Source: Candidatus Tayloriibacteriota bacterium
GTDB lineage: Bacteria > Patescibacteriota > Minisyncoccia > Phycocordibacterales > PALSA-1337
Length of the DNA: 64,000 nucleotides
Direction: 5' to 3'
Assembly (NCBI GenBank): GCA_031384385.1
Contig: JANNAN010000013.1
Location: forward strand, 6,015-70,014
Part shown: one piece after another, positions 26,247 to 53,372 of the stretch
Position numbering within the stretch: position 1 is the stretch's first letter
Layout of the letters: the number at the start of each line of letters is the position of its first letter
Notes under the pieces: generated by a model
What the model was told of the DNA's origin: nothing
Databases searched by the model: none
What the model saw: only the letters and a program-made list of their open reading frames with translations
Made by a program: the position numbers and the translations under genes

Positions 26247-27239
26247 ATGAAAAAAATAAGAGTTGCCATTAATGGCTTTGGCCGAATCGGTCGTGCATTT
26301 TATAAAGTAGCAAAAGAAAATCCAAATATTGAAATTGTTGCTGTTAATGATTTAACTTCTCTTGAAAATGTAGAATATCTTTTAAAATATGATTCTGTTT
26401 ATGGGAAAAGTGACTATACTTTGAAAGGTGTTGAATATTTATCTGAAAAAGATCCAACATTATTACCATGGGGTAAATTTAATATTGATGTAGTTATAGA
26501 ATCTACTGGGTTATTTACATCAAGCGATAAGGCTCAAGCCCATATTCTTGCTGGTGCAAAGAGAGTTGTTGTTTCTGCGCCAATAAAAGATGATGCAATG
26601 TCAGTTGTAAAAGGTGAGACTATTCTAATGGGAATGAATGAAGAAAAGCTTTCTACTTGTCAGATTTCTTCTAATGCTTCTTGTACAACAAATGCCGGAA
26701 GCCCATTGCTTGCAATTCTGGATGAAGTTATCGGTGTTGAAAAAGCAGTTCTAAATACTGTACATGCATATACCGCTAGTCAGGCAATTGTTGATGGACC
26801 AAGTAAAAAAGATATGCGAGAAGGACGAGCAGCAGCAGAAAATATTGTTCCCTCAACTACTGGAGCAGCTATTGCAGTAACAAAGGTTATGACAGGTCTT
26901 ACTGGACTTTTTGATGGCATTTCTATAAGAGTTCCTGTTATCGCTGGTTCTATAGTGGATGTAACATTTATTTCAAAGAAAAATACAACAGTTGAAGAAG
27001 TAAATGAAGCTTTGAAAAAAGCAGCTTCAGAAGATCGTTGGAAGGGAATATTTACAGTTACAGAAGAAGATTTAGTTTCTTCAGATATAAAAGGGAATCC
27101 ACATGCATCAATCGCAGATCTTGCATTTACAAAAGTAGTTGGTGGAAATTTGGTAAAAGTTTTAGCTTGGTATGACAATGAGATGGGGTACACACATACC
27201 CTCGTGAATCATGTCATTGCGGCAGGAAGATTAGTCTAA
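26247..27239 (+). CDS. gap: glyceraldehyde-3-phosphate dehydrogenase (type I). Last ~25 codons are GC-richer and coincide with the integration site of the downstream element
   Basis: INGFGRIGR NAD fold, catalytic SNASCTTN, C-terminal WYDNEMGY. Confidence 0.9.
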   Translation: MKKIRVAINGFGRIGRAFYKVAKENPNIEIVAVNDLTSLENVEYLLKYDSVYGKSDYTLKGVEYLSEKDPTLLPWGKFNIDVVIESTGLFTSSDKAQAHILAGAKRVVVSAPIKDDAMSVVKGETILMGMNEEKLSTCQISSNASCTTNAGSPLLAILDEVIGVEKAVLNTVHAYTASQAIVDGPSKKDMREGRAAAENIVPSTTGAAIAVTKVMTGLTGLFDGISIRVPVIAGSIVDVTFISKKNTTVEEVNEALKKAASEDRWKGIFTVTEEDLVSSDIKGNPHASIADLAFTKVVGGNLVKVLAWYDNEMGYTHTLVNHVIAAGRLV

Positions 27240-30248: not shown

Positions 30249-30626
30249 ATGACAGCAGAACAAACAGGAGTAATCAAAGATAAATTTATTCTAGAACTTA
30301 ATGAGCAGATTTGGCGTAAGGAAATGAATATCGCCTTTGACCTCAGTAAAATTCCAGATATTGAAAAACTCCGCGATGTTAGGTTCAAGGAACTTGATGG
30401 TCTTAATGCCGATCTAAAGCTCATAGATTCAACTGACACAACAAAACAGAGTCGAATAAAGAGAAAGGATCTAGAAAAGAAAATAGCCCTAGCTGAGGAT
30501 TTCACCTTGAAGTGTGATGAGACGATCGTTGTAATTAGAGACAATACCAATAAGGAAAAAGAAAAGGTTGACCAATTACAAGCCAGAATTAAATTCGCAG
30601 AAACCTATGGAATCGACAAAAATTAA
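30249..30626 (+). CDS. hypothetical coiled-coil protein
   Basis: 125 aa, charged/helical, no motif. Confidence 0.4.
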   Translation: MTAEQTGVIKDKFILELNEQIWRKEMNIAFDLSKIPDIEKLRDVRFKELDGLNADLKLIDSTDTTKQSRIKRKDLEKKIALAEDFTLKCDETIVVIRDNTNKEKEKVDQLQARIKFAETYGIDKN

Positions 30627-31300
30627 AATTAATGAGTTAAGACGAGCTGAGTATAACCCACGCATTATGCCAGAAAATGAAATGTCTGCGCTTAAGACAA
30701 GTATCAAGACCTTCGGCTTTGTCGAATCAGTAGTGGTAAATACCCACACCTGTGACCAATGTGGTGACAGAAAATGGGTACTGGTAGGGGGTCATCAGCG
30801 AACTACCGCCGTAGAGGGGCTTGTAGCACAAGGTGAAGCCATAAAAGGCATTGAAACCAAGGATGGAGTCACCCTCATTCCAGCCAACCTAGTTGATTTA
30901 CACCTTCCTGAAGAAAAGCTTTTGAATCTCGCCCTCAATAAAATCAAAGGAAAATGGGATGAGAAAAAACTCTTCGAAATTATTGTCGAGCTTAAGGAAT
31001 CACCATCCATTCCCGCTTCGGGATTTCGAGACGATGAGATCAGCCGAATACTCGATCAGACTCTTGAGGACGAGGAAGAGGATGAAGGTGAGGGCGACGG
31101 TGCCGACAAAGAACCTCGCTCAAAGCTTGGCGAAATCTATGAGCTCGGGTCCCACAGGCTCATATGTGGTGATTCAACAGATCCCGATACGTACAAAAAA
31201 CTTCTTGGAGAGGAAAGGGCTGATATGGTTTTCACTGACCCTCCATACAATGTGAACTATAAAAGTCGAGGAAATAAACTCAAAGAGGAAGGTAATGAGT
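30568..31300 (+). pseudogene. ParB-like nuclease domain fused to N4/N6 DNA methyltransferase, truncated after motif IV by IS insertion
   Basis: ParB-nuclease-like N-terminus (INELRRAEYNPRIM..GGHQR) and methyltransferase motif IV MVFTDPPYNV. Reading frame runs straight into the IS left inverted repeat at 31301. Catalytic motif I and TRD missing. Confidence 0.6.
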
Positions 31301-31369
31301 TGGCCCTCCCCCCAAATTTAATACACCAATCTTGTATAATTAATAGAAATAATTAAATATATAAGGAAT

Positions 31370-31627
31370 ATGAAAACACATAAAATATCACCAGAGTTAA
31401 AGGAACAAATAATTAACAGGGTAAAGAATGAAGGTATATCAGTAGCACAAGCAGTAAAAGATCATGGTGTATCTGATAACACAATATATGGTTGGATATC
31501 AAAGAAAGTAGAAGGACAACCTACATTAGCTGAAGTATTGAAATTAAGAAAAGAAAATGATGAATTGAAAAGACTTGTCGGTGATATCACATTGAAACTT
31601 TCTCTACCCCAAAAAAAGAAGTGGTAA
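31370..31627 (+). CDS. IS3-family transposase OrfA (HTH)
   Basis: 85 aa, helix-turn-helix GISVAQAVKDHGVSDNTIYGW, ends at the frameshift window. Confidence 0.7.
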   Translation: MKTHKISPELKEQIINRVKNEGISVAQAVKDHGVSDNTIYGWISKKVEGQPTLAEVLKLRKENDELKRLVGDITLKLSLPQKKKW

Positions 31628-32412
31628 CTGAATCTAAAACTCTCAGGGCCAGAGAGTTAGGTATATCTAGAAGTAGTCTGTATTACAAACAAAAGAAACC
31701 AGAGGAAGACTGGAAATTAAAATGTAAAATTGAAGAAATACTCCGAGAACATCCAAGTTATGGTTCTCCACGTATTGCCATAGCTTTAAAACGTAATCAT
31801 AAACCAATTGAAAGAGTGATGAAGCTCTTTGGTATTAAGGCATATCGTAGAAGAGGTAAGAAGTGGAAAAAAACTAAGAACATCAAGGTAGTATACCCAA
31901 ATCTTCTTTTAACAAATCATCCAATGTATGAGAATCATATCTGGGTATCTGACTTTACTTACATCCCATTTCAAGGAAAATTTGTATATGTTGCTACTGT
32001 TGAAGATTTGTTTACAAGAAAAATAGTTGGAGTGGCGGTATATACCACGCATGCTACACAATTGGTATTGTCAGCATTCATGTCTGCAATACATAACAAT
32101 CCTAGACCTCTAATATTCCATTCAGACAATGGAAGTGAGTATGATTCAGATATATTCATACATGCATTAAATACCGTTGGAGTTTCAATATCTAGATCAG
32201 CTCCAGGTTGTCCGTGGGAAAATGGATATCAAGAATCATTCTATGATAAATTTAAAATTGATTTAGGTGATCCTAGTAGATTCAAGACTCTTGGAGAATT
32301 AGTATATGAAATCTATCATCGTATTTATGTTTACAACAATACTAGAATACATACAGCACTTAAAATGTCTCCAGTTCAATTTGCATTAAAAATTCGTCAG
32401 GGATACAATTAA
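31621..32412 (+). CDS. IS3-family transposase OrfB (DDE integrase core), expressed as OrfAB by -1 frameshift
   Basis: In -1 frame relative to orfA. rve-type DDE motifs. Confidence 0.7.
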   Translation: MVTESKTLRARELGISRSSLYYKQKKPEEDWKLKCKIEEILREHPSYGSPRIAIALKRNHKPIERVMKLFGIKAYRRRGKKWKKTKNIKVVYPNLLLTNHPMYENHIWVSDFTYIPFQGKFVYVATVEDLFTRKIVGVAVYTTHATQLVLSAFMSAIHNNPRPLIFHSDNGSEYDSDIFIHALNTVGVSISRSAPGCPWENGYQESFYDKFKIDLGDPSRFKTLGELVYEIYHRIYVYNNTRIHTALKMSPVQFALKIRQGYN

Positions 32413-32509
32413 CTCAATACAAGATTAGTGTCTAAAGAAATGGGGGAGGTACATTCTCTCAAAAGAACTCGCCACACATCTCACGGGTAGACATATTCCC
32501 ATAGAAATA

Positions 32510-33343
32510 TTGCCATTCGATTTCAAAGAGATTTTGAAAGCTAAGCAGTATGAATATTCAGCAGACAAAATGTTGTTACCCGAGGAAAAAGCTAAACTTC
32601 AGGGATACATAACTCAATACATGACAAATGGCGGCTTTCCAGAAGTTGTCACAAAAGATGTTGAACCTCGTGGCTATCTTGATGTACTCTTTGATGCAGT
32701 GCTTTTCAAAGATGTCATAAAGCGTCACAAGGTCCGCTTCTCAAAACAGATAGACAATCTTGGATCGTATTTGATAAATAATGTTTCAAGTCAGTACACT
32801 GCTAGAAAACTTGCTAGCGTTCTCACATTCAAGAGTGACGTTACTGTGGCAAAATACCTTGATTATTTGATTGAGGCATACCTAGTTTTCTCCTTGGATC
32901 GTCATTCGACCAAAGCTACTATGAGATTACAGCTGCCAAAGAAAACCTATGTGGTAGATAACGGCCTCGTTACTGCCAAGGCGGTTCAGCATTCTCCTAA
33001 TAGTGGTAAGCTAATGGAGAATCTCGTATTTATGGAACTTGTAAAAAGAGGACATCAGCCAAACCGTGAATTGTTCTACTACAGGACTCGTAACGATCGA
33101 GAGATAGATTTTGTACTTAAAAAAGGGCATGAGGTGGTCGAACTGCTACAGGTTTCCTATGATTCTACTAGCCAGGATGTTGAGGAGAGAGAAGTAAAGG
33201 CACTAGTTGAGGCAGCTGAGGAATTGAAAGTCACGAAGCTCACTGTACTCACTTGGAATGAAAAGAGGGAAATGAAGAAGGACGGAATGACGATACAGTT
33301 TATTCCACTTTGGGAATGGCTAACAAATAATTCTAACGAGTAA
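32510..33343 (+). pseudogene. C-terminal fragment of an AAA-ATPase with DUF4143-like domain (5' part removed at IS boundary)
   Basis: Frame is open back to the IS right end (..SKELATHLTGRHIPIEILPFDF..) with no ATG. Downstream sequence (ELFYYRTRNDREIDFVL, GHEVVELLQVSY) resembles the DUF4143 C-terminal module of AAA ATPases. The AAA domain itself is absent. Confidence 0.45.
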
Positions 33344-33347
33344 AATT

Positions 33348-33878
33348 ATGGTAGGGATTATTTTTGAAGCACATGGCACGACATTTGATAACGAAGCACA
33401 CCTTGCCTCTGGTCACTTTGATGTCGAACTTTCTCCTCTCGGTATTAAACAGTCTCAAGAAATGGGAGAAAGGTACAAAGATGAGCACTTTGAGATAATT
33501 TTCTGCTCGGATTTGCAAAGATCATATAAAAGTGCGGAGATTGCATTCGGCAATAGGTTTCCGATTGTGAAAGATGCACGATTGCGAGAATGCGACTATG
33601 GTGATTATACTCAACAACCTAGCGAAATAGTTGATCGACAAAAACCACAGAGAATTCATGAACCCTTTCCTAAAGGAGAAAGCTATGAGCAAACTACAGA
33701 AAGGATGAAGGCATTTCTCGAGGATCTTAGGAAGAAATGTGAAAACAGGAGAGTTATGATTATAGGTCATAGAGCCACTCAGTACGCACTCGAAAATCTT
33801 ATAAAGGGTGTTCCACTCGAAGAAATTATTCCTGCACCATGGAAATGGCAGCCGGGATGGAAGTATGAGTTGGAGTAA
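33348..33878 (+). CDS. histidine-phosphatase superfamily (phosphoglycerate-mutase-like) protein, noncanonical AHG instead of RHG
   Basis: IIFEAHGTTFDN..ELSPLG..IIFCSDLQRS..IIGHRATQYAL matches branch-1 histidine phosphatase layout. The Arg of the RHG motif is Ala. Confidence 0.55.
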   Translation: MVGIIFEAHGTTFDNEAHLASGHFDVELSPLGIKQSQEMGERYKDEHFEIIFCSDLQRSYKSAEIAFGNRFPIVKDARLRECDYGDYTQQPSEIVDRQKPQRIHEPFPKGESYEQTTERMKAFLEDLRKKCENRRVMIIGHRATQYALENLIKGVPLEEIIPAPWKWQPGWKYELE

Positions 33879-33888
33879 GTATTAAAAT

Positions 33889-34278
33889 ATGGAAAAGAAA
33901 TTCAAACATTTAGAATTTATCCAGTCAGTCATTAATAGAATGACAAACAATTCTTTTTTACTGAAAGGTTGGTGTTTGAGTATAATTGGAGCAATTTTTG
34001 CACTTAGAGGTGGAAATTCCTCAACCAGCATACTTCCACTCTTTGTAATTATGTTTTGGCTTCTAGATAGTTATTATCTTTCTCAGGAGAGACTATTTAT
34101 TGCTTTATATAACGACGTCGTTCCTAGATCAGAGGATAAAATCGATTTCTTAATGCATACAAAAAAGTTTTGTAGAGGAAGAAACACATGGTGGAGATCA
34201 TTTTTTTCTCATACCCCTGTGATTTTCTACGGATTTATTTTGATCGTAATCATATTTATTAATTCTAATTCTATATAG
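33889..34278 (+). CDS. small 3-TM membrane protein (candidate membrane effector partner of the downstream TIR protein)
   Basis: 129 aa. Amphipathic N-terminal helix then three hydrophobic helices. 10 bp after the phosphatase gene and 4 bp before the TIR-like gene. Confidence 0.5.
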   Translation: MEKKFKHLEFIQSVINRMTNNSFLLKGWCLSIIGAIFALRGGNSSTSILPLFVIMFWLLDSYYLSQERLFIALYNDVVPRSEDKIDFLMHTKKFCRGRNTWWRSFFSHTPVIFYGFILIVIIFINSNSI

Positions 34279-34282
34279 ATTT

Positions 34283-34768
34283 ATGGCAAGAAAAGTATTT
34301 TTTAGTTTTCATCATCAGGGCGACATATTGAGGGTAGGGCAGATTCGTAATAGCTGGCTTCTTAGAGATGAGCGCGAGGATCTGGGCTTCGTAGATGCGG
34401 CAGCATGGGAATCAATTAAAAGAAATGGTGATGAGGCTATAAAGCGATGGATCGATACTCAATTAAGTGGAACATCTGTTACGGTTGTGTTGATTGGACA
34501 AGAAACTGCTAGTAGACCGTGGGTCATTCATGAGATCATTGAGAGTCATAATAAAGGAAATGGGCTTTTGGGTATAAGAATACATAATGTTAAAGATTTG
34601 CACGGTCGCTACTCACTCCAAGGATCTAACCCGTTCGATCAAGTAAGTATCACTTCTACAGGTAAATCCTTGTCTCAAATTTACCCTGTCTATGACTGGG
34701 TAACAAACAATGGACGTGAAAATATGCCTATTTGGATAGAAGAAGCTGCACGAAAAGCGAGCAGATAA
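34283..34768 (+). CDS. TIR-like domain protein of the DUF1863 / Thoeris ThsB-like family
   Basis: MARKVFFSFHHQGDILRVGQIRNSWL..FVDAAAWESIKRNGDEAIKRWIDTQLSGTSVTVVLIGQETASRPWVIHEIIESHNKGNGLLGIRIHN..SNPFD follows the conserved ThsB/DUF1863 signature (KxVFFSFH, W..D..L..VL.G.T..WV..EI..G...GI.I). Confidence 0.65.
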   Translation: MARKVFFSFHHQGDILRVGQIRNSWLLRDEREDLGFVDAAAWESIKRNGDEAIKRWIDTQLSGTSVTVVLIGQETASRPWVIHEIIESHNKGNGLLGIRIHNVKDLHGRYSLQGSNPFDQVSITSTGKSLSQIYPVYDWVTNNGRENMPIWIEEAARKASR

Positions 34769-36574: not shown

Positions 36575-36637
36575 GACTTCATGTCATGAACTCTATAAAG
36601 TGGACATTTGAGGAAAATGTCCGAACCCCCGATTTGC

Positions 36638-37495
36638 CTAACTGTTGACAGCCTCGAGGAGCTTGTTCCAGTCTTTCGCGCCGGAAGGCGTGGAGCAATG
36701 ATTGGTGCATACCACCTTGACGTCACCCTTGGCAAAGCCGCGGAGACCATCGAAGGCGAATACGAACGGATCATCGTGATGGTTGCCGGCAGTGATAATG
36801 CCGATCTTCTTCACACCTTTTTGAATGGCGTGGAGCGCGATGATGGGTCCGTAAGGCATGACACCCTGACAGTTAACCATTGCCTGACCTCTCGGTCCCA
36901 TGCAAGCATAACCACCCTTGGGAATCATGCAGTCGGTGAGGACTACTTCCGGCTGTCGTTCAAGTGCGTCGAGCGCCTGATCGAATCCAGAAACGATTGT
37001 GAGATCGTATACTCCAAGAAGCTCCTTCGCCGAGGCGATATTTGCCGGATCATCTTCCACTACGAGAATGCGAGTCTTACCCGCAGTTCCGATGGCTTGA
37101 ACGATCACGTCATCCCTCCAATCATTGAAGGGTATCACGCCGGTCTTGTGAACGGCAACTTCACGGACACCTTCCATGAGTTGAGCGAAGATTTTCGCCT
37201 TGCTCGACTTTTGCAGTCTTCGAGCAATTGAAGCCGAGGCTTCATGAGGATCGATGGTCTTGTACCAGTCGTTTCCCTCTGGATGCGTCCAAGCGTCGAG
37301 GAGAATGACGTCGGCGTCAACAGCTTCCTTGATGAAAGCCTCAGCGTGATCTCCATGGAGATATCCGCCGAAGCCGACATAGGTGAGCTTCTGACCAGTC
37401 TTCTCTTCGAGATCCCGATGAACGACACCGCCTGGTCCATACAAAGGATCATTGGTGCCGTGATTTGCCATGCAATGAAGCAGAATCTTTTTCAT
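36638..37495 (-). CDS. hypothetical protein with central CheY-like receiver (REC) domain
   Basis: ILVVEDDPANIASAKELLGVYDLTIVSGFDQALDALERQPEVVLTDCMIP fits the REC consensus including acidic pocket and D-phosphorylation position. Flanking N- and C-regions unrecognised. Confidence 0.5.
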   Translation of the reverse strand: MKKILLHCMANHGTNDPLYGPGGVVHRDLEEKTGQKLTYVGFGGYLHGDHAEAFIKEAVDADVILLDAWTHPEGNDWYKTIDPHEASASIARRLQKSSKAKIFAQLMEGVREVAVHKTGVIPFNDWRDDVIVQAIGTAGKTRILVVEDDPANIASAKELLGVYDLTIVSGFDQALDALERQPEVVLTDCMIPKGGYACMGPRGQAMVNCQGVMPYGPIIALHAIQKGVKKIGIITAGNHHDDPFVFAFDGLRGFAKGDVKVVCTNHCSTPSGAKDWNKLLEAVNS

Positions 37496-37524
37496 TCGTT
37501 TCTCTTTCGTTGTTGATTGTTATG

Positions 37525-37603
37525 TAAAGAACTGAACTCTCAGGGTTCGCGACATCAGTCGTAAACCCAGTTGAGTCCCTGTAACCATTGCTAGTCACAG
37601 GGG
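37525..37603 (-). ncRNA. family-1 structured element E1 (two-hairpin motif, unknown class)
   Basis: Minus-strand: hairpin2-ACUCAACUG-GGUUUACGAC-UGAU-GUCGCGAACCC-UGAGAGUUCAGUUCUUUAC. Shares linear motifs and covarying 11-bp hairpin with six other copies. Confidence 0.55.
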
Positions 37604-37623
37604 TTGAGTGAGATTTCAGGTAC

Positions 37624-37983
37624 TCACTTCATAAACTCGAAATGGATCTCAGTGATCCAGTCGAAATCGAATTTAACCTCGCGTACAGTCAAACCCATTT
37701 TTGCCGCCTCCTGTTGGAGGATTTCTTCGGCATGTTTAAGTTTCTCAGCCTTGCCATTTCCTCGCAAGTACGCCGGAAAGACGATCTTTCCAGAGGTATT
37801 GAGGAAGCGTTCACACTCAGGTTTCTCGGCGAAAATGAGAAACTGATGATTCCAACCGAAGTACGCATACAGGTTGGTTGTGAGTGACGGCTGTGCTGGT
37901 CTCGGACGTTTGTCGAGCATCCTGTGGCACCTTTCGGTAACTTGCAACAGGTCATGATCTTGAAGTGCGCTTGCGTCTACCAT
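37624..37983 (-). CDS. hypothetical protein (start at MVDASALQD)
   Basis: ATG 37983 with AGGAG 6 nt upstream. The track ORF start at 38049 lies inside element E2. Confidence 0.4.
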   Translation of the reverse strand: MVDASALQDHDLLQVTERCHRMLDKRPRPAQPSLTTNLYAYFGWNHQFLIFAEKPECERFLNTSGKIVFPAYLRGNGKAEKLKHAEEILQQEAAKMGLTVREVKFDFDWITEIHFEFMK

Positions 37984-38013
37984 AGTTTTTATCTCCTGGT
38001 TTGATTGTTGATG

Positions 38014-38092
38014 TAAAGAACTACTGAACTCTATAGATTCACAACACATTCGTTATGAATCTAATAAAGTCGGGGAGGTTTTTGAAGTCTCC
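38014..38092 (-). ncRNA. family-1 structured element E2
   Basis: Minus-strand 11-bp perfect hairpin AGAUUCAUAAC-GAAUGU-GUUGUGAAUCU flanked by ACUUUAUUA and AGAGUUCAGUAGUUCUUUAC. Second hairpin GGAG..CUCC. Confidence 0.55.
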
Positions 38093-38148
38093 TCGATTTT
38101 GAAAGTTTTAGACTTGCGTCACCGTTACTTCACGGAGTGGGTTGACCA

Positions 38149-38361
38149 CTATTTTGTTTCGGTCTTCTCCACAATCACCATTGCGACATGATAGGTATGC
38201 ATTGCGCATGGCATCTGGAGTGGCTCCCGCATCTCACCCCAAGGGGCGATTGCGTAGGACGACGAAACAACCTTCCAGCCCGGCCCAAGTTTCTCAAGTT
38301 CTTCATTGAGTTCGGGCTCAGGTGTTGCATTCATCGTTTTAACGATAATGGTTTTCAACAT
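38149..38361 (-). CDS. hypothetical 70-aa protein
   Basis: Start MLKTIIVK chosen downstream of element E3. The track ORF begins inside E3. Confidence 0.3.
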   Translation of the reverse strand: MLKTIIVKTMNATPEPELNEELEKLGPGWKVVSSSYAIAPWGEMREPLQMPCAMHTYHVAMVIVEKTETK

Positions 38362-38424
38362 AAGAATAGTCTTTCTGTACTGGTGTATTGTTTCGGCACA
38401 CCTACTTGAAGCCGTTTTATATTC

Positions 38425-38504
38425 CAAAGAACTGAACTCTGAGAGCTCACAACGGATTTGTTGCGAACTCAGTAAAGTGCTCATTTTAGGTGAATGAGCA
38501 AAAC
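38425..38504 (-). ncRNA. family-1 structured element E3
   Basis: GGUUUUGCUCAUUCACCUAAAAUGAGC-ACUUUACUG-AGUUCGCAAC-AAAUCC-GUUGUGAGCUC-UCAGAGUUCAGUUCUUUG. Compensatory changes relative to E7 (G-C to A-U). Confidence 0.55.
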
Positions 38505-38517
38505 CGAATCGAGCAAA

Positions 38518-38925
38518 CTACTGAACCTTTCTCCAGCACAGAGCCGGATGTTCGCTCGGGCCACCACCGTGGTCGAGGTGATAGAAACATAGACCATCAT
38601 TCTGGTTGGCCAAGCCGAGGCTCTTCATTCGCCTGGCGTGCCTGCCGAGGTAGTATCCGATCCTATCGTTCATGTTTTCACGACAGTCATACAAAGTGAT
38701 CCATCCTTTGTACTTTCGGAACTCCTTGTGTTTGAAGATGCTCACATCCCGGATCTGCGCGGGGATGTGACCGGCAGCGTCGGATGCTTCCTTGGCATCA
38801 CGATGCGTTGACCGATCTAGGCCAGCCTTCGCTTTGAACTCTACGAGATAGTATTCCATACCATCGTGAGTGAAAAGCGTAGGTTGCGGAATTGCGGTGA
38901 ACTTCAGACTTTGCGTCGCATTCAT
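38518..38925 (-). CDS. hypothetical protein
   Basis: 135-aa ORF, no motif. Confidence 0.4.
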   Translation of the reverse strand: MNATQSLKFTAIPQPTLFTHDGMEYYLVEFKAKAGLDRSTHRDAKEASDAAGHIPAQIRDVSIFKHKEFRKYKGWITLYDCRENMNDRIGYYLGRHARRMKSLGLANQNDGLCFYHLDHGGGPSEHPALCWRKVQ

Positions 38926-38980
38926 TATTTCGTTTCTTTCTTGGTTGAGTTTGTTTGTGATTACTAAATTTGAAAGAGCT

Positions 38981-39029
38981 TTCTGTTTCGTCCTTCTGGA
39001 CTCATCAGTCGGAATACATTCCGAGACAG
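38981..39029 (-). ncRNA. hammerhead ribozyme HHR-2
   Basis: Minus-strand: CUG-UC|UCGGAA-UGUA-UUCCGA-CUGAUGA-GUCC-AGAA-GGAC-GAAAC-AGA. Minimal ~49-nt hammerhead with GUC triplet. Confidence 0.8.
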
Positions 39030-39099
39030 TCGGTCAGTAAAAATTTACCGACCATTCACACAATTTTTAGGTAGTGTGCGTACCTCTATGTGGTAGAAC

Positions 39100-39390
39100 T
39101 TATTTTCCTTTTGATTCGACCAGGGAAACGTAATTTTGAATCCCTTGTTTAACCAATTCTTCAATAAGTACCACCAACGGGCATGGATGATACTTTTCAG
39201 TATCCAATGCCATTGTTGCTTCCACAAACGCAACTGCGTCTGTGAATTTGTAACCTTCATCAGTTGGGACAATGAAGATCGTTTCTCTAACTTCCTCTCC
39301 AGCGATACTGGAGCCGTCATCAAACTCTCCTCGAGTTGGGCGGAAGCACAAGCTCACCCGACCTTCCTCGTTCACACGCAATCCCATCAT
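39100..39390 (-). CDS. hypothetical 96-aa protein flanked by two hammerhead ribozymes
   Basis: Start MMGLRV at 39390 just downstream of HHR-3. The track start 39456 lies inside the ribozyme. Confidence 0.4.
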   Translation of the reverse strand: MMGLRVNEEGRVSLCFRPTRGEFDDGSSIAGEEVRETIFIVPTDEGYKFTDAVAFVEATMALDTEKYHPCPLVVLIEELVKQGIQNYVSLVESKGK

Positions 39391-39416
39391 ATATATAAAG
39401 AGCAGTCGTTGTTGTG

Positions 39417-39497
39417 TTCTGTTTCGTCCTTCACCTTGGCTTCGTCTGAAGCACAAGGGGACTCATCAGTACAGATTATATCTGTAGACAGAAGGGG
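39417..39497 (-). ncRNA. hammerhead ribozyme HHR-3 (extended stem II)
   Basis: Minus-strand: CCCCUUCUG-UC|UACAGAU-AUA-AUCUGUA-CUGAUGA-GUCC-(long imperfect stem II CCUUGUGCUUC..GAAGCCAAGG)-GGAC-GAAAC-AGAA. Confidence 0.75.
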
Positions 39498-39576
39498 CTA
39501 GATTTAAATCTTGCCCCATTTTATGACAATTCTTGAGCAGGTAGTCATCATACCTTCTAGCACTGCATGCCAGCCT

Positions 39577-39641
39577 CACCATTTCAAACGGTGACATTCA
39601 CACTCTTCTGTAACAAAGGTTAGAGTGATCCTTTGGTAGTC
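39577..39641 (-). ncRNA. family-3 conserved element (copy a), downstream of stop codon
   Basis: ~65-bp block CACCAUUUCAAACGGUGACAUUCACACUCUU..AAGGUUAGAGUGAUCCUU..GUAGUC, ~85% identical to 41206-41275. Contains CACACUCU/AGAGUGAU inverted repeat. Confidence 0.45.
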
Positions 39642-39651
39642 TTTCCTACAG

Positions 39652-40017
39652 TCAGATGCCGCAGAGCGAACGTATCTTGCAAATTTCCCTCAATGTCTGT
39701 TGACGTCCCGGAAGTCCATTCTCAACCCATCCTCCAAATTGCTTCAGAGTGGTGAGAATTTCTTCCCGAGTGCCAGGTTCCCCGATACAAATGGGGATGA
39801 ACTGACGTTTGTCTTCAGACTTAGCGAGGAACTTGCAAGCGATCGGTATTGAGGATTTCACCTGAACCACGGGGATGGTGTTGTCATTGGTAGTGACATC
39901 CAATCCGTGATCATTGAAACCTCCGATTACCTGTACGCCAAATACTTTGGCGTACGCTTTCTCTAGCTCGGCACCGACGAATTCCTTCGTCACTCCCATG
40001 GTTTTCATAGAGTTCAT
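39652..40017 (-). CDS. hypothetical protein
   Basis: 121-aa ORF, no motif. Confidence 0.4.
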   Translation of the reverse strand: MNSMKTMGVTKEFVGAELEKAYAKVFGVQVIGGFNDHGLDVTTNDNTIPVVQVKSSIPIACKFLAKSEDKRQFIPICIGEPGTREEILTTLKQFGGWVENGLPGRQQTLREICKIRSLCGI

Positions 40018-40064
40018 AATATTATGAGATGTGGTACCGAGTTAGGCACCGTTGTTGTTTACTG

Positions 40065-40328
40065 TTATCCGTAGGTGACCGATGACTGTCGCAGAGATCG
40101 AATGAGAACAGGGAAGATGAGTAACGGATGCTTAAGCATGAATTTTGCTTTTTCTTTGCCTTGAAGGTGTCGAGCTGCGATGAGAAGAACAACTTCTCGG
40201 CTCATCGCTTCTTGACCCTCCACCTTGCATTCCGTAAATATCTTCTGAGCCTTTTCGTCTCCTTGGTGTCGCCTGACGCGATCCAGAATATCAGTAAGTA
40301 ACATTTGGTATTTCGTGTTGTTTTTCAC
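40065..40328 (-). CDS. hypothetical protein
   Basis: 87-aa ORF, helical, no motif. Confidence 0.35.
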   Translation of the reverse strand: MKNNTKYQMLLTDILDRVRRHQGDEKAQKIFTECKVEGQEAMSREVVLLIAARHLQGKEKAKFMLKHPLLIFPVLIRSLRQSSVTYG

Positions 40329-40494
40329 AAAGAGCTTTCCTCAATGAATCCACCAGGTCCAGCACACGCTGGCTGACGGACTCAATAAAGGACTTTTTTC
40401 AATACTTCTACGATGTTACTATTATAGCATAGTATATACTACTTGTCCAGTGTATTGTTAAATATAATGAACAGGGAAGTATGGCTTATTTTAA

Positions 40495-40546
40495 GGCTGC
40501 TTTCGTCGTTTTCGACTCATCAGTCTGGACAATATCCAGAGAGCAG
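40495..40546 (-). ncRNA. hammerhead ribozyme HHR-4
   Basis: Minus-strand: CUGC-UC|UCUGGA-UAUUG-UCCAGA-CUGAUGA-GUCG-AAAA-CGAC-GAAA-GCAG. Stem II GUCG/CGAC is a compensatory variant of GUCC/GGAC. Triplet CUC. Confidence 0.75.
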
Positions 40547-40596
40547 AGGTTGATTCCGTACAATCAACCTGATTAATGTGAATGCGGTTCGGCGCA

Positions 40597-40914
40597 TTAT
40601 TGACCCTTCAGAAAGGCCATCGCTTCGATCAATCCCATCCCGTGTGCCATTTTGCCATCGGGAAATGAATTGAAGATCTTGAAGCGATCAGATTCAGGAA
40701 TGGTGGCGGCTTTCTGTTTCCACCACAGAACCTGTGCAACGCGCTTGGATGTATTGTCCAAATACACCTGCACTTTTTCTGGTTCATCGGTCATGATGCC
40801 GTCGGCTTCCTGAACCGTCTTCACAAACTCCAAACCCCCGATAGTTGTGAAGATCTGAACGATTGCCTTATGGACAGGACTGTCCGGCGTCGCAAGATCC
40901 AGAAATATTTTCAT
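40597..40914 (-). CDS. hypothetical protein
   Basis: 105-aa ORF, overlaps upstream small gene by ATGA. Confidence 0.4.
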   Translation of the reverse strand: MKIFLDLATPDSPVHKAIVQIFTTIGGLEFVKTVQEADGIMTDEPEKVQVYLDNTSKRVAQVLWWKQKAATIPESDRFKIFNSFPDGKMAHGMGLIEAMAFLKGQ

Positions 40915-41051
40915 ACCTCTTTCCTCCAGTTTTGTTTTTGTTTGTTGCGGTTGTATCCACGGACACCTTTCGGAGTTCCGTAGGGTTTACCGATGAAAAG
41001 AGTTTGCTTGCGCACACTCTTCATCGCCTTCAACTGAATTGTATTGTTCAT
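40911..41051 (-). CDS. 46-aa basic protein (upstream partner in a two-gene cassette)
   Basis: MNNTIQLKAMKSVRKQTLFIGKPYGTPKGVRGYNRNKQKQNWRKEV. Track ORF extends further 5' into ribozyme-flanking sequence. Confidence 0.3.
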   Translation of the reverse strand: MNNTIQLKAMKSVRKQTLFIGKPYGTPKGVRGYNRNKQKQNWRKEV

Positions 41052-41118
41052 AGTAATCTGCCACTGATGATCGCGTGAGTGGCAAGTTGCTATGAACAAT
41101 ATTTTATTTAAAGAACTT

Positions 41119-41172
41119 TTCTGTTTCGTCCTTTCGGACTCATCAGTCGAGACTCGCATCTCGAGACAGAAC
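41119..41172 (-). ncRNA. hammerhead ribozyme HHR-5 (near-consensus)
   Basis: Minus-strand: UUCUG-UC|UCGAGAU-GCGA-GUCUCGA-CUGAUGA-GUCC-GAAA-GGAC-GAAAC-AGAA. GNRA loops on stems I and II, GUC triplet. Confidence 0.85.
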
Positions 41173-41205
41173 GAATCCTTTGATCCGTAGCGCTGCACGC
41201 CAACT

Positions 41206-41275
41206 CACCATATAGATACGGTGACATTCACACTCTTTTGAATAGAAGGTTAGAGTGATCCTTCTTTTTGTAGTC
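41206..41275 (-). ncRNA. family-3 conserved element (copy b)
   Basis: See 39577-39641. Lies between stop of 41289-41705 and HHR-5. Confidence 0.45.
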
Positions 41276-41288
41276 AGACAAGCTGACA

Positions 41289-41705
41289 TCATAACCAAGA
41301 CAGTTGTTCCCTTATATCCGGATTTCGCTGATCGAATACCGGATTTAAAGAGATTTCCTGTTTGGCTAGACTAGTGAAACCATCTACGCCGTCAACAACC
41401 TTTCCTTTGGAATCATGTCTGATACTCAGCTCAGTTCCTCCGGTAAAATTATTGGCTGCGAATTGTTTCAAGAAGGCTTGCACCTCCTCTCGCAATTTGG
41501 TCTCAGCAAAAGGTTCCTTATCTACACTCACAATCTCGTACGTATCTTCGGCGTATGAATTTTTTTCATCGCCACTCTGATCGTACCAGCTGTATGAGTG
41601 CTTCAGGTAAACCCTTCGGCCAGCAAGTTCAATGACAAATAGAGATTCACCTCCACCGCCATTACTTGCCCCCTCGTCATGACTACGAATAACGAACGCT
41701 TTCAT
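41289..41705 (-). CDS. hypothetical protein
   Basis: 138-aa ORF, Gly-rich N-terminal segment, no motif. Confidence 0.4.
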   Translation of the reverse strand: MKAFVIRSHDEGASNGGGGESLFVIELAGRRVYLKHSYSWYDQSGDEKNSYAEDTYEIVSVDKEPFAETKLREEVQAFLKQFAANNFTGGTELSIRHDSKGKVVDGVDGFTSLAKQEISLNPVFDQRNPDIREQLSWL

Positions 41706-41792
41706 ATCTCACCTCCTTTCGTTTTGTTGAGTGTTTATTCAATGAGGTGGAGGATTAGGGATAGAACCCAATCCTCCCAACGACACCCGAAC

Positions 41793-42065
41793 CTAATCAG
41801 GGTCGATCAATATGTGGGCGATCGCGAATGGCCCACCCCAGTCTTCACCGGGATTCACCATTCCATGATCGTGCGTGCACATCAAGGTGGTGGATTTCGG
41901 TGTCGGATAAAACTTTGCAGGATTATCCGTGAGAATCCAGTCTGCTCCTTCTGGAGACGAGACGAACTCCCAACCGTCGGAACGCAGCATTGTCTTGCTG
42001 CCTGTGATCTTTTCGATCAACTCCTCTTTTCCGACCGCGACTTCGATATACATTTTTCGGGGCAT
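41793..42065 (-). CDS. hypothetical protein
   Basis: 90-aa ORF immediately downstream of element E4. Confidence 0.4.
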   Translation of the reverse strand: MPRKMYIEVAVGKEELIEKITGSKTMLRSDGWEFVSSPEGADWILTDNPAKFYPTPKSTTLMCTHDHGMVNPGEDWGGPFAIAHILIDPD

Positions 42066-42088
42066 AAATTCTACTTGTTGATTGTTTG

Positions 42089-42169
42089 AAAAGAACTGAA
42101 ATTCTATGAATCTGCGACTTCAGTCGTAGACTCAATAAAGTGCAGATTTTGATGGAATCTGCTAAAACC
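42089..42169 (-). ncRNA. family-1 structured element E4
   Basis: GGUUUUA-GCAGAUUCCAUCAAAAUCUGC-ACUUUAUUG-AGUCUACGAC-UGAA-GUCGCAGAUU-CAUAGAAUUUCAGUUCUUUU. Confidence 0.55.
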
Positions 42170-42852
42170 TGACCTCTAGCAATAGTGATCCACACGGATC
42201 GTATTGAAAGAGTAATCCCACCGACTCCCCGAGTACCTCTGATATCTCCACTTTCGTGAAAGTGTCAGTAGGCGACTGCGCTCTCGCTTGGAGAGCCGAC
42301 GACCTGTGTCGTCTGCGAACTTCAGTGTTCGCGATCTCCTTCTGTGGGAGATATCGAGTACACCATCGGTGGTGCTCGATTTTACAGGCTTAAAGCCAGG
42401 AAACTGCACCGTTGCACTACCGTATGATGTACTCATATTTTTATTTCGGTTGGTTGTTTTTGAAATATTCGCAGTTCGGAATCACCATGAATGTTCCTTG
42501 ACCAGGTACACACTCACAACTATCCGATGATGTATAAGAGATGGGGTTGTTATCCCGCATGAGGTTATGCCTCTAATCTCCCGTACACCTTGTTCTTTCC
42601 AGGGATGCATGCCCACGTAACGAACGTGGATTGGTCGAGCATTCCCTTTCGACAACAACCTTTCGGTTGAGGTGAAAGAACTAGAGCCCTACAAAATTCT
42701 GCCAATCTACTGAAAACCCTTGCAAGTTTTCTAAGTAATCGGAGCTAGAACAGTGTAGACCCCACACAATGGCTTCTGCGTAGCCTGTGCATATAACTGT
42801 CCTTAATAATTAATTCAGACCAATTATATGCACAAGCATTTCAAAATTTATT

Positions 42853-42931
42853 TAAAGAACTAAACTCTTTGGGCCAGCAACATTGTTGTAAGCCCAATAA
42901 AGTGCAGATTTTGATGGAATCTGCGAAAACC
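42853..42931 (-). ncRNA. family-1 structured element E5
   Basis: Same hairpin-2 sequence as E4 (GCAGAUUCCAUCAAAAUCUGC). Hairpin 1 GGGCUUACAAC-AAUG-UUGCUGGCCC. Not followed by an ORF for >400 nt. Confidence 0.5.
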
Positions 42932-43005
42932 ATTTGCTTTTCGGGGTTGATTATTGTCCGATAGCAGTGCGACTCTTTTTTGTTAGGAAAAGAGCTAGAG
43001 AAACC

Positions 43006-43395
43006 TTAGTAATCAAGAGGGTGGCATCTGTGCCCGACGCTCTCGCCCCATTTGTTTCTTTCAATCGGAGATTCGAGACCTCCAGACCGATAGAGACATT
43101 TGGTACGCGAGACCGCCAAGGCTTTGATGACATCGTCTCCGATCGTCCCTCGACGCACGAACTGCTTGCGCAAGCGGCGATATTCACGCGGGTTCTTGAT
43201 CAAGCCTAAGCTCTCACAAGTATCCCCGTAGTGACTACCCCGATTGTCGACAGCAATTGTGTGCCTGAAGAACAACCGTCGACCCTCGACCTTGAACGAG
43301 ATGACCCTGTAAGGGATCAGGCTCGCCCAATGGTGGTCCCTCGTGAACCTCTCCGTATGGATTTTGATTTCCATGGTTTGATTCGTTTTCATAGT
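43006..43395 (-). CDS. hypothetical protein
   Basis: Start taken at MKTNQTMEIK inside track ORF 43006-43416. Basic, no motif. Confidence 0.35.
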   Translation of the reverse strand, partial: TMKTNQTMEIKIHTERFTRDHHWASLIPYRVISFKVEGRRLFFRHTIAVDNRGSHYGDTCESLGLIKNPREYRRLRKQFVRRGTIGDDVIKALAVSRTKCLYRSGGLESPIERNKWGESVGHRCHPLDY

Positions 43396-43631
43396 TTCTC
43401 TATTTTTAATGTGCAAATTGGGCTGGCACCAGGGCTAGACTTCTTCAAGTGGCTAACTTGATAAAGCTTTCGCCGTGATGCCAGGAGAGTTTTTTGCGGG
43501 CTCTCAAACCGCCACATAGTACGACCGGCCAAGGTCTTCCTTGCTATATCTCCGTCTTTCAGGAGCTTCCAAGTGACCCTTAGAGCCCTTGGCTGATTTT
43601 CAGCAAATCTCATGCTCGCTACTTCTCGCAC
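43389..43631 (-). CDS. hypothetical protein
   Basis: 80-aa ORF, weak. Confidence 0.25.
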   Translation of the reverse strand: MREVASMRFAENQPRALRVTWKLLKDGDIARKTLAGRTMWRFESPQKTLLASRRKLYQVSHLKKSSPGASPICTLKIEKL

Positions 43632-43804
43632 TTTCGTGCAGTAGCTTCACACAAGTTCTCTGGTCGCGTGCCAGAGGGGATAGTACCGCCAACCCGGATG
43701 GGTCCGTATAGCATCTCCCTTCGGCCAAACACCATGTGAGTGTTCTGCCCTATGGGTATTCGAATTTCGAGTACCCATTTCGACAGAACACAATTTCAAG
43801 AAAC

Positions 43805-43859
43805 TTCTGTTTTCGTCTTTCAAGACTCATCAGTCGGAATACATATTCCGAGAACAGAG
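43805..43859 (-). ncRNA. hammerhead ribozyme HHR-6 (1-nt insertion at cleavage triplet)
   Basis: Minus-strand: CUCUG-UUC|UCGGAAU-AUGU-AUUCCGA-CUGAUGA-GUCU-UGAA-AGAC-GAAAAC-AGAAG. Stem II GUCU/AGAC compensatory variant. Extra U and extra A suggest a slightly degenerate copy. Confidence 0.65.
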
Positions 43860-43931
43860 AGACGATTTGCATCATCCCAGTAGTTTCCGCTCACCAAGCG
43901 CCCTGGAGCTACCCCAGAGAATTACGGGAGT

Positions 43932-44294
43932 TTAATGACTTCCATGGTCAGTCGAAGCGAGAACACTACGGTGTACCCACTGCACGGCTCCAAAGCCGGT
44001 GTCGTAGGATCTCTCGTAGTACACTGTTGCGTTTACATGCACAGGCTGGCCGTTGGTGAAGCCAGTCTCACCGGGAAAAAATCCCTTTTTGCCTTTGATT
44101 TTTCCTTCGAGAAAACGGACTTCGATTCCGTTCGCGCTCACCTTGGAAACAATTCCGGTGGCACTCGCTTCCTCACTCCATTTTTGTGGAGTAGCCAACT
44201 TTTTTGGTAAAGTGGCATAGAAACCGAAACCGATCAGGGCAAAGCCCAGAACAACCAAGAGAACCGCTAATGTCTTCTTCATAGAACTCTCCAT
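43932..44294 (-). CDS. hypothetical secreted/membrane-anchored protein
   Basis: Signal peptide/TM MKKTLAVLLVVLGFALIGFGFYA. Confidence 0.45.
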   Translation of the reverse strand: MESSMKKTLAVLLVVLGFALIGFGFYATLPKKLATPQKWSEEASATGIVSKVSANGIEVRFLEGKIKGKKGFFPGETGFTNGQPVHVNATVYYERSYDTGFGAVQWVHRSVLASTDHGSH

Positions 44295-44301
44295 TTTAAT
44301 T

Positions 44302-44380
44302 TAAAGAACTGAAATCTATGAATCTACGACTTCAGTCGCAGACTCAATAAATTGATCATTTGAGGATTAATGATCAAACC
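44302..44380 (-). ncRNA. family-1 structured element E6
   Basis: Fills the whole intergenic space. Hairpin 2 UUGAUCAUU..AAUGAUCAA (different sequence, same fold). Hairpin 1 AGUCUGCGAC-UGAA-GUCGUAGAUU. Confidence 0.55.
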
Positions 44381-44381
44381 G

Positions 44382-44636
44382 TTACCCCATTTTGCACCGC
44401 AGGATTTTGCGGCAACCTCTTGCGAGAAGGTCACTCAGCCATGCTGCCCAGAGCGAACGTCGCCAGAAGCGCCGAAGCAGAAGGTATATAACCAGCGCCT
44501 CGATCACCAACGCTACCACAAGACACACGAGTGTCAGACAGTAGACGAAGGTTTCCGGAAATATTTGCCCCAGAGTAGCCTGCGTAAGTTTGTAGAGCAT
44601 TTCCATGCTCTGTCGCATTATTTCATTGAGTTGCAT
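44382..44636 (-). CDS. hypothetical small membrane protein
   Basis: 84 aa with one long hydrophobic helix. Confidence 0.4.
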   Translation of the reverse strand: MQLNEIMRQSMEMLYKLTQATLGQIFPETFVYCLTLVCLVVALVIEALVIYLLLRRFWRRSLWAAWLSDLLARGCRKILRCKMG

Positions 44637-44700
44637 AGTGAGCGAAGCTCAATTCTTGAGCGTCATTCACTACACAACTCTAATGTAAAGAACCGCAGAA

Positions 44701-44775
44701 GTATCTGCACTATGCCGCGCCTCCGTTTTTTTAATATAATTATATAGTTTATGAGGCGCGAGATAGTGCAGACAC
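44701..44775. repeat. large imperfect palindrome (23-bp arms, AT-rich 29-bp centre)
   Basis: GTATCTGCACTATGCCGCGCCTC ... GAGGCGCGAGATAGTGCAGACAC. Confidence 0.5.
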
Positions 44776-44783
44776 ATTTTTAT

Positions 44784-44862
44784 TAAAGAACTGAACTCAA
44801 TGGATTCACAACATCAGTTGCGAACCCAATAAAGTGCTGATTTTGAGAAAATCAGCGAAAAC
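44784..44862 (-). ncRNA. family-1 structured element E7 (most upstream copy)
   Basis: GGUUUUCGCUGAUUUUCUCAAAAUCAGC-ACUUUAUUG-GGUUCGCAAC-UGAU-GUUGUGAAUCC-AUUGAGUUCAGUUCUUUAAU. Confidence 0.55.
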
Positions 44863-45540
44863 TGCGCGCGATGCCTCATCCTAAGATCACCGTTAGGTGA
44901 TAGCCAGTTATTCAGCAAAGCTGTTACTGGTGATGAAAGCTGGTGGAGGCTCAATGGCCACAACCATCACATTTTTATTTAAGGCTGTGTACACCCACTC
45001 CAATTTGTCCTTGGAGTATTCATGATTATTTTTTCGTACCCTCATGACTGGACGGAGTGGACTAGCAGGTAGCTGTTGCTACGACTTGATGTGTCAAATT
45101 CCCGAAGGAACCAAGACTTCCATCATCTGCTATCCACCCATATTTTTTAGGTACTATGGGGTCGCGACACTCCCTGTACCATATTTAAATCCAAATTATT
45201 TTGATTCAAATACGGTACAAGGAGAAAAACTTATTTCAAGTGAACTGTTTACATGTCAATCGTTCTGGGGTGTAGTATAGCAGATACAATAATTTTGTCA
45301 AGTATAATTAACACTTTATACCTAAATACAGCAAATATAGCCCTATAAATATGGATATTTAAGCTATATAAGAGTTATCAAGAAGTGACATATTATAAAT
45401 AATTTTGACAAAGTCAAAATGTAATTTGAAATAAAATATTTCTGTTAAACAATAAAAACATGATAAAAAGGCATAAAATGAATGTTTTCTTGTATCTATG
45501 GCTTAAAATATGGGGTTTATTATGAAAATGACAATAAAAC

Positions 45541-50768: not shown

Positions 50769-51050
50769 ATGTTGCATACACAATTAGATACAGGTTTTGT
50801 TACTAGATTAGAGTTCAATGAATTTAAAAATATGAACGAGTTAAATTTTACTAAAATTGATGAGAATTTCTTTAAAATAGATAAGAAATTTGATTATCTA
50901 ACAGAAACCATGATCAATGGTTTTGATAGAATTTACGATAGAATTGATGTAAAATTTTGGGAAGTTGATAAAAGATTTGATAAATTAGAAAGAGATATGA
51001 ATCTTATTAAAAAGCATTTCGGAATAAAAGATGCTACAATAAATGCATAA
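50769..51050 (+). CDS. hypothetical protein
   Basis: 93 aa, Asp/Lys/Phe-rich. Confidence 0.4.
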   Translation: MLHTQLDTGFVTRLEFNEFKNMNELNFTKIDENFFKIDKKFDYLTETMINGFDRIYDRIDVKFWEVDKRFDKLERDMNLIKKHFGIKDATINA

Positions 51051-51504: not shown

Positions 51505-51522
51505 TTTAATTATATTAATAAT

Positions 51523-52200: not shown

Positions 52201-52227
52201 TATATAGCATTATGCTATAATATTTGT

Positions 52228-53088: not shown

Positions 53089-53093
53089 ATTAT

Positions 53094-53372
53094 ATGAATA
53101 AAAAGATTAAAAGTATTATTTATTTGATAATTGCATGTGTTCCAGCTCTTTTGTTTGGTCTAACTGGAACTATTTTTAAATATATTGGCTCAGCATTTTT
53201 AGCAAAATATTGGACTATTCTTTTCTTTTTAATTCCACTCTTTGCATTGATTTCTTTTATTTATTCATTACTATCAATAAAAGAGGACAAGAAAATGATT
53301 ATTGTATCCATAATAGATATTATTCTGATTGGAATATTTATTTTTGGTTTATATTTAGGATTACGTATTTAG
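53094..53372 (+). CDS. small membrane protein (paralog 1 of 3)
   Basis: 92 aa, three hydrophobic helices. Confidence 0.4.
   Translation: MNKKIKSIIYLIIACVPALLFGLTGTIFKYIGSAFLAKYWTILFFLIPLFALISFIYSLLSIKEDKKMIIVSIIDIILIGIFIFGLYLGLRI

Follow-up and report, generated by a model that had tools for sequence, protein, structure and literature searches.

Three co-directional genes follow one another closely in the window, by which we mean the whole stretch of 64,000 nucleotides of DNA that was analysed. They encode a histidine-phosphatase-fold protein, a small membrane protein and a TIR-domain protein; the genes for the latter two are designated thsF and thsB here (Table 1). The three open reading frames, their coordinates, their location on the + strand and the gaps that separate them (10 bp between the phosphatase gene and thsF, 4 bp between thsF and thsB) are exactly those given in the original prediction, which was made from the sequence alone and which joined all three genes into a single candidate module for TIR signalling in defence.

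Table 1. Features of the thsF-thsB locus and its upstream flank (positions are those of the window)
Feature	Position	Strand	Protein length	Remarks
C-terminally truncated ParB-methylase	30568-31356			On the far side of the IS3 element from the ATPase remnant
IS3-family insertion sequence (orfA + orfB)	31370-32412	+		HTH_Tnp_1 and rve matches; context only
5'-truncated AAA_14/DUF4143 ATPase remnant	32453-33343	+		PADLOC PDC-S01; context only
Histidine-phosphatase-fold gene	33348-33878	+	176 aa	His_Phos_1 match; neighbour, not a system component
thsF, membrane effector with three TM helices	33889-34278	+	129 aa	PADLOC PDC-M50A match
thsB, TIR-domain protein, presumed sensor and signal synthase	34283-34768	+	161 aa	ThsB_TIR match

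Genomic setting of the locus

Upstream of the three genes, an IS3 element is sandwiched between two truncated genes, one for a ParB-methylase and one for a DUF4143 ATPase. The homology of the latter to intact ATPases of 427-429 aa starts at residue 132 of these proteins (tblastn), corresponding to nucleotide 32453 of the window, and their N-terminal P-loop part is absent from the entire window; the match of the remnant to the PADLOC model PDC-S01 spans profile positions 150-409 of 412. The locus belongs to a variable region from about 27.5 to 50 kb, in which the GC content, 0.37-0.53, exceeds the background of this low-GC genome (about 0.30); gene by gene, it is 0.41 in both the phosphatase gene and thsB and 0.31 in thsF. 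This region is bounded by GAPDH on one side and by rpiB-rpe-tktN-tktC on the other, and on a related contig (L088) the distance from the phosphatase gene downstream to the rpiB-tkt block is only 3 kb. A search for tRNA genes or direct-repeat att sites bounding the island found none. At its start, the region has genes of phage type for replication and recombination (Sak4-like, Rep-O-like and RusA-like), and these, together with the IS3-like element, bear out the mobile setting, with an insertion sequence and phage replication genes, that had been described for the locus. The thsF-thsB cassette is situated in a variable, mobile-element-rich and defence-island-like region.

No terminator-like site lies between the phosphatase gene and thsF, and no promoter was recognised in the 10 bp that precede thsF, which makes co-transcription of the two genes likely. 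This arrangement looks like a by-product of the site at which the cassette landed.

The TIR protein ThsB

The profile search that the original prediction had suggested for the 161-aa protein confirmed its assignment as a ThsB-type TIR protein, with a match to Pfam ThsB_TIR (PF08937) at E=1.3e-25. The PADLOC models PDC-M50B and ThsB were matched at 4.2e-65 and 3.5e-63, respectively. Comparison with the structures of ThsB from Bacillus cereus MSX-D12 (BcThsB; PDB 9B7D and 6LHY) gave E=4e-34 with the entire TIR core aligned. Glu84 of the window protein aligns with the catalytic Glu85 of BcThsB, and the surrounding motif reads WVIHEI in the former and WVRYEI in the latter. Profile scans of eight proteins neighbouring the TIR protein revealed no SIR2, SLOG or Macro domain, so that the earlier statement that a ThsA partner of these kinds is missing holds for these neighbours.

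The membrane protein ThsF and its relation to type V Thoeris

Thoeris types V to XI were defined in a December 2025 preprint by Yirmiya et al. (bioRxiv 10.64898/2025.12.03.692087), in which type V consists of the TIR protein ThsB and of ThsF, a small effector that spans the membrane with three helices and is labelled 'DUF2270'. According to that study, two Bacillus type V systems shielded B. subtilis from phage as two genes, and the assayed TIRs of both these defensive systems produced 3'cADPR upon infection. Added 3'cADPR was toxic to cells with the system of B. thuringiensis DAR 81934, whereas the system of Bacillus sp. 1NLA3E was defensive, yet not triggered by 3'cADPR; a Vibrio cholerae type V system was tested and gave no defence. 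In AF3 models, ThsF assembled into a channel-like heptamer whose protomers have basic pockets between them (bioRxiv 10.64898/2025.12.03.692087).

The 129-aa protein has no significant match in Pfam or NCBIfam, only weak ones to DUF3278, DUF2270 and 8xMP, and its membership in this family therefore needed direct comparison with a validated ThsF. Membership was examined in three ways: through the type labels that the preprint assigns to TIRs in its Table S1, at the locus of Phocaeicola barnesiae, and, decisively, against the validated ThsF of B. thuringiensis. TIRs similar to that of the window carry the label 'DUF2270 - Type V' in Table S1 (bioRxiv 10.64898/2025.12.03.692087). The TIR of P. barnesiae DSM 18169 is likewise listed there as 'DUF2270 - Type V', and at its locus (L033) the sole co-directional neighbour is a ThsF homologue. 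For B. thuringiensis DAR 81934, a protein (P0241, locus L171) with 100% identity to the Table S1 sequence of ThsB was located. The gene directly downstream of it (L171:4773-5198) encodes 141 aa, and the IMG identifiers of the B. thuringiensis TIR and effector are consecutive; because of this position and these identifiers, the 141-aa protein was taken to be the validated ThsF. The window protein shares 44% identity with it over 125 aa (BLASTP, E=2e-31), and a profile built from 46 window-like homologues aligned with it at an hhalign probability of 100% and E=1.5e-46. Judged by sequence, the TM protein of the window is clearly a full-length homologue of the validated type V effector.

The PADLOC models lead to the same family. 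The 129-aa protein matches PDC-M50A at E=4e-43, and one model, PDLC04686, is the best match of both the window ThsF and the validated one. The two adjacent window genes match both the A and the B models of the candidate system PDC-M50 (PADLOC-DB v2.0.0), and since the validated ThsF matches M50A too, PDC-M50 appears to be identical with type V Thoeris. Searching the literature for 'PDC-M50' and '8xMP' turned up nothing relevant. The pairing of a TIR protein with a minimal multi-TM protein had been presented as uncharacterised; in fact, it has been catalogued as PDC-M50 and tested as type V (bioRxiv 10.64898/2025.12.03.692087). The 'DUF2270' label, on the other hand, is loose and unusable as a criterion, because the window ThsF and the validated ThsF both fail the Pfam HMM: PF10028 (DUF2270) gave no match to the window protein at E<=1 and no significant match to the validated ThsF (Pfam hmmscan), and just 10 of the 46 ThsF homologues matched it, at E>=0.02.

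The AF2 model of the ThsF monomer (mean pLDDT 89.8) has long helices at residues 2-38, 46-77 and 108-128. The hydropathy profile peaks at three places that coincide with these helices, with centres near residues 29-35, 51-58 and 112-122, and both lines of evidence agree with the three TM helices predicted earlier. Foldseek found no meaningful match of the model in the PDB (best E=2.3). Residues K6, H7, L8, E9, F10, R17, W28, F56, W57, E67, S107 and F113 are invariant in 46 close ThsF homologues, and all are kept in the window protein. Neither a Macro nor a SLATT domain was detected in the 129-aa protein or its 45 aligned homologues; the SLATT-family search that had been suggested thus returned no match, and a type II (Macro-TM) or type VII (SLATT) effector was rejected.

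Pairing of ThsF with TIR proteins in genomes and viruses

At E<=1e-3, the ThsF family comprises 1301 clusters, and species-representative genomes contain at least 566 ThsF loci, which are spread over many phyla of bacteria and also occur in some archaea. An adjacent same-strand TIR gene was found at 65 of the 80 genome loci that were fetched; it lies only downstream of thsF in 47 of these, only upstream in 7 and on both sides in 11, and both the thsF-thsB and the thsB-thsF order are common. Four of the 15 remaining loci are at contig edges, and several more have larger neighbours with TIR-like N-termini that were overlooked by the TIR queries used. Homologues of ThsF were also found on 23 IMG/VR viral contigs, 17 of which have an adjacent same-strand TIR, so that ThsF is commonly carried by mobile elements and prophages. 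By sequence, the TIRs paired with ThsF fall into six or more different clusters, in line with the usual arrangement of Thoeris, where a single effector serves diverse sensors. The two nearest relatives of the window ThsF (64-67% identity) have the thsF-thsB order, gaps of 4-6 bp and no phosphatase gene. They lie beside a divergent gene for a LexA/S24-type repressor in a prophage-like setting (terminase, ParB-methylase).

The histidine phosphatase

The match of the 176-aa protein to His_Phos_1 (PF00300; E=6e-33) supports the histidine-phosphatase fold that was initially ascribed to it. Its H9, the nucleophile His of the RHG motif, is invariant in 31 aligned homologues, and the motif FE[A/S/T/P]H[G/S/A]TT.DNE, in which an invariant Glu precedes the variable position, is present in 31/31 of them. 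None of these 31 homologues has the Arg of the RHG motif, its place being taken by A, S, T or P. The AHG variant to which the original prediction drew attention is indeed present at the locus, but it is not specific to it: according to the aligned sequences, 'AHG' is a trait of the whole phosphatase family and not a local lesion or adaptation. This very abundant family, which is plentiful in Patescibacteria, is highly conserved: its best 120 clusters are 70-89% identical, and the named members among them belong to Paceibacterota, Buchananbacteria, Minisyncoccia, Taylorbacteria and Parcubacteria.

Gene neighbourhoods separate the phosphatase from the thsF-thsB pair. Within ±5 kb of ThsF, the 103 loci examined (80 genome and 23 viral) contain no homologue of the phosphatase, and neither ThsF nor a TIR was found at any of 83 loci with phosphatase homologues (59-93% identity). 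The proposed three-gene module is thus not supported; what stands of the proposed TIR signalling defence module is the putative pair of a TIR protein and a membrane effector, with the phosphatase excluded. In the literature searched, no paper linking Thoeris with a histidine phosphatase was found. The phosphatase is a passenger next to the Thoeris system and not a component of it.

A DUF4143 ATPase gene precedes the phosphatase gene in four of the five closest relatives examined (78-87% identity), either directly or one gene apart, and in these relatives the ATPase is intact (427-429 aa, AAA_14+DUF4143, PADLOC PDC-S01). At one of the loci, a 931-aa Ppl/AriA-like ATPase is wedged between the DUF4143 ATPase and the phosphatase; the relative with 89% identity adjoins NYN and NUDIX genes, not the ATPase. 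The gene downstream of the phosphatase differs from one relative to another: a 115-aa unknown protein, a 205-aa unknown protein, a UvrD/GajB-like helicase, a NUDIX protein or a convergent PG-binding protein. In the wider family, the ATPase is directly upstream of the phosphatase at just one of the 52 loci whose upstream sequence is long enough. A general two-gene ATPase-phosphatase module was rejected on these counts, and the linkage, being confined to the closest relatives, represents a lineage-specific synteny. The ATPase-phosphatase pair looks like a resident synteny whose flanks act as a variable cargo slot, which holds thsF-thsB in the window.

Discussion

The identity of the thsF-thsB pair rests on homology, on the catalytic Glu and on the conserved pairing of the two genes. 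We consider it very likely that positions 33889-34768 hold a two-gene type V Thoeris system, thsF followed by thsB, in which a signal made by the TIR protein, probably 3'cADPR, would open the membrane through a ring of ThsF. By analogy with the validated systems, ThsB would detect phage infection, and its TIR domain would turn NAD+ into a cyclic ADP-ribose signal. This signal is most likely 3'cADPR, because the window ThsB bears its closest resemblance to BcThsB, and 3'cADPR is the product of type I TIRs. ThsF subunits are predicted to assemble in the membrane as a ring-shaped homo-oligomer, which, once it has bound the signal, may breach or permeabilise that membrane. Growth arrest or cell death would then precede the completion of phage replication, as in abortive infection. 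We infer the identity of the signal, the ThsF oligomer, the disruption of the membrane and the anti-phage activity in this host from the validated relatives, and neither the signal nor the activity can be assumed, because the Bacillus sp. 1NLA3E system ignored 3'cADPR and the V. cholerae system gave no defence.

The TIR might, for instance, make a different molecule (2'cADPR, canonical cADPR, His-ADPR or a new one) to which ThsF is tuned, within the same type V architecture. We regard this as rather unlikely, even though ThsF pairs with at least six TIR clusters, the ThsF of the window is just 44% identical to the validated one, and the system of Bacillus sp. 1NLA3E is not activated by 3'cADPR (bioRxiv 10.64898/2025.12.03.692087): the window TIR is closest to ThsB of B. 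cereus MSX-D12, type I TIRs make 3'cADPR, and so did both defensive type V TIRs assayed in the preprint. It is very unlikely that the cassette is a decayed or silent remnant in an IS-scrambled region, lacking its own promoter and serving no present role. The ATPase and the ParB-methylase are truncated around the IS3 element, and the intergenic region with the divergent repressor gene that is seen in the nearest relatives is missing, leaving only 10 bp before thsF. Yet the thsF and thsB reading frames are full length, all family-invariant residues of ThsF and the catalytic Glu of ThsB are kept, and read-through from the upstream genes could give transcription.

The close spacing of the three co-directional genes (10 bp and 4 bp, with no terminator-like site between them) and the unusual active-site motif of the phosphatase family would fit a genuine three-gene system, in which the phosphatase-fold enzyme processes, matures or degrades the TIR-made signal, for instance through dephosphorylation or a reset of the signal. 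Such a system is nevertheless highly improbable. The phosphatase is found within ±5 kb of ThsF at 0/80 genome and 0/23 viral loci, and ThsF or TIR at 0/83 phosphatase loci; the nearest ThsF relatives lack the phosphatase, and the nearest phosphatase relatives (78-89% identity) have other downstream genes. Moreover, the validated type V systems function with two genes (bioRxiv 10.64898/2025.12.03.692087), and the literature searched yielded no link between Thoeris and a histidine phosphatase. It is extremely unlikely, too, that the phosphatase, likely co-transcribed and devoid of the RHG Arg, has been recruited in this Patescibacteria lineage as a Thoeris accessory that hydrolyses or modifies a cADPR-type signal or an ADPR-phosphate precursor and thereby sets the activation threshold. 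If true, such recruitment would give a Thoeris system of three components, with an integral enzyme that clears the signal.

Read as a two-gene type V Thoeris system, the cassette belongs to a system type that has already been described and tested, and as a kind it is neither new nor uncharacterised. It shares with the validated type V systems the two-gene operon of a TIR protein and a small three-TM effector, and differs from them in several respects. The B. thuringiensis locus has the order thsB-thsF, whereas thsF comes first here; the B. thuringiensis TIR has 252 aa, whereas the BcThsB-like TIR of the window has 161 aa. The validated hosts are Bacillus, whereas the predicted system described here comes from Patescibacteria; unlike the validated systems, it abuts a phosphatase gene across a gap of 10 bp. 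Both component models of PDC-M50 are matched here, and PDC-M50 itself is a bioinformatic candidate without a mechanism. Type I Thoeris of B. cereus MSX-D12 has a close TIR with the catalytic Glu conserved and probably the same signal (3'cADPR). Its effector, however, is the SIR2-SLOG NADase ThsA, whereas the effector here is a small membrane protein, and the eight TIR-flanking proteins contain neither SIR2 nor SLOG. In type II (Macro-TM ThsC) and type VII (SLATT ThsH), a TIR-made signal likewise acts on a membrane-disrupting effector, but the signals of these types are His-ADPR and canonical cADPR, respectively, unlike that of type V.

The main value of these findings lies in correct annotation: the thsF-thsB pair is named type V Thoeris, and the phosphatase is removed from the system. 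Annotation pipelines that rely on PF10028 would miss ThsF effectors, which the PADLOC PDC-M50A models find. In related genomes, the surroundings of the ATPase-phosphatase pair resemble a variable slot with defence genes as cargo. Patescibacteria and viral contigs often carry ThsF-ThsB cassettes, and surveys of defence systems cover such hosts poorly.

Hammerhead ribozymes and repeats in the GC-rich block

The GC-rich block at ~35.4-45 kb of the window carries five matches to the type III hammerhead ribozyme (RF00008), all on the minus strand, within 38980-43859 (see table). Because all of them lie between small minus-strand ORFs, the arrangement suggests that the block is a mobile element or phage and that the hammerheads cleave its polycistronic transcript. 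The same ORFs are also separated by intergenic direct repeats of 47-61 nt, which fall into three families (D1-D3, with 4-6 copies each) and include sequences that begin 'AAAGAACTGAACTC...' and 'GTCGTAGACTCAATAAAGTG...'; these repeats may serve the hammerhead-bearing element as recurrent signals for regulation or processing. In Pfam, a 285-aa protein encoded within the block matched part of the response-regulator receiver domain weakly, at E=4.5e-4, which falls short of the gathering score.

Features of the window and of loci fetched for comparison (window positions unless a locus is named)
Feature	Position	Strand	Remarks
Hammerhead RF00008	41118-41172	minus	49.6 bits, above gathering score
Hammerhead RF00008	39416-39494	minus	35.7-40.1 bits, E 7e-6 to 1e-4 (range over four matches)
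Hammerhead RF00008	38980-39032	minus	as above (same range)
Hammerhead RF00008	43805-43859	minus	as above (same range)
Hammerhead RF00008	40495-40548	minus	as above (same range)
D1-D3 direct repeats	36583-44863
285-aa protein	36638-37495	minus
IS3-family element	31370-32412		between two different truncated genes (region 30568-33343)
GAPDH	26247-27239		island border
rpiB-rpe-tktN-tktC	51043-55663		island border
931-aa Ppl/AriA-like ATPase	L089:3194-5989		around ATPase-phosphatase pair
UvrD/GajB-like helicase	L198:2167-3504		around ATPase-phosphatase pair
NUDIX protein	L196:2233-2751		around ATPase-phosphatase pair
Large P-loop neighbour of ThsF	L011:2479-4377
Large P-loop neighbour of ThsF	L013:2871-4971

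Rearrangement, integration and defence cargo

An IS3-family element lies between a ParB-methylase gene without its C-terminal half and a gene for a DUF4143 ATPase (PADLOC PDC-S01) that lacks its first ~131 residues, P-loop included. Since its flanks are thus two different truncated genes, the gene order points to deletion or rearrangement mediated by the IS rather than to simple insertion. The wider region (~27.5-50 kb of the window) is bounded by GAPDH and rpiB-rpe-tktN-tktC. A search of its edges revealed neither a tRNA nor att repeats. In the related contig L088 (9412-12414), the same rpiB-tkt block lies 3 kb from the phosphatase, with phage tail and lysis genes upstream, which gives the interval between GAPDH and rpiB-rpe-tktN-tktC the appearance of a hot spot for recurrent integration.

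The histidine phosphatase next to thsF (33348-33878) belongs to a very abundant and highly conserved subfamily of His_Phos_1 (60-89% identity; loci L088-L170), which appears to be typical of Patescibacteria. Throughout this subfamily, A, S, T or P stands where the RHG motif has its Arg, and an invariant Glu precedes that position (FE.HGTT.DNE). From one close relative to another, different defence-like genes occupy the positions around the pair formed by this phosphatase and the DUF4143 ATPase, and this site resembles a slot with variable defence cargo.

Sensors and family relationships of ThsF

At some ThsF loci, such as L011 and L013, our TIR queries detected no TIR; in its place, these two have next to ThsF a large protein whose N-terminus carries a 'YSFKGGTGRSM' P-loop, and in L013 a small protein that starts like a TIR precedes it. 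This large neighbour may represent a variant sensor architecture for ThsF. The published label of ThsF is DUF2270, but the PF10028 (DUF2270) scores were below significance for the validated ThsF of B. thuringiensis DAR 81934 (L171:4773-5198) and its homologues (window 33889-34278, L033 and L067). The validated ThsF and homologues matched '8xMP, octameric membrane protein family' (PF24838) weakly but over the full length, with E about 0.01-0.04, a similarity that hints at a distant link between ThsF and another oligomeric membrane family.
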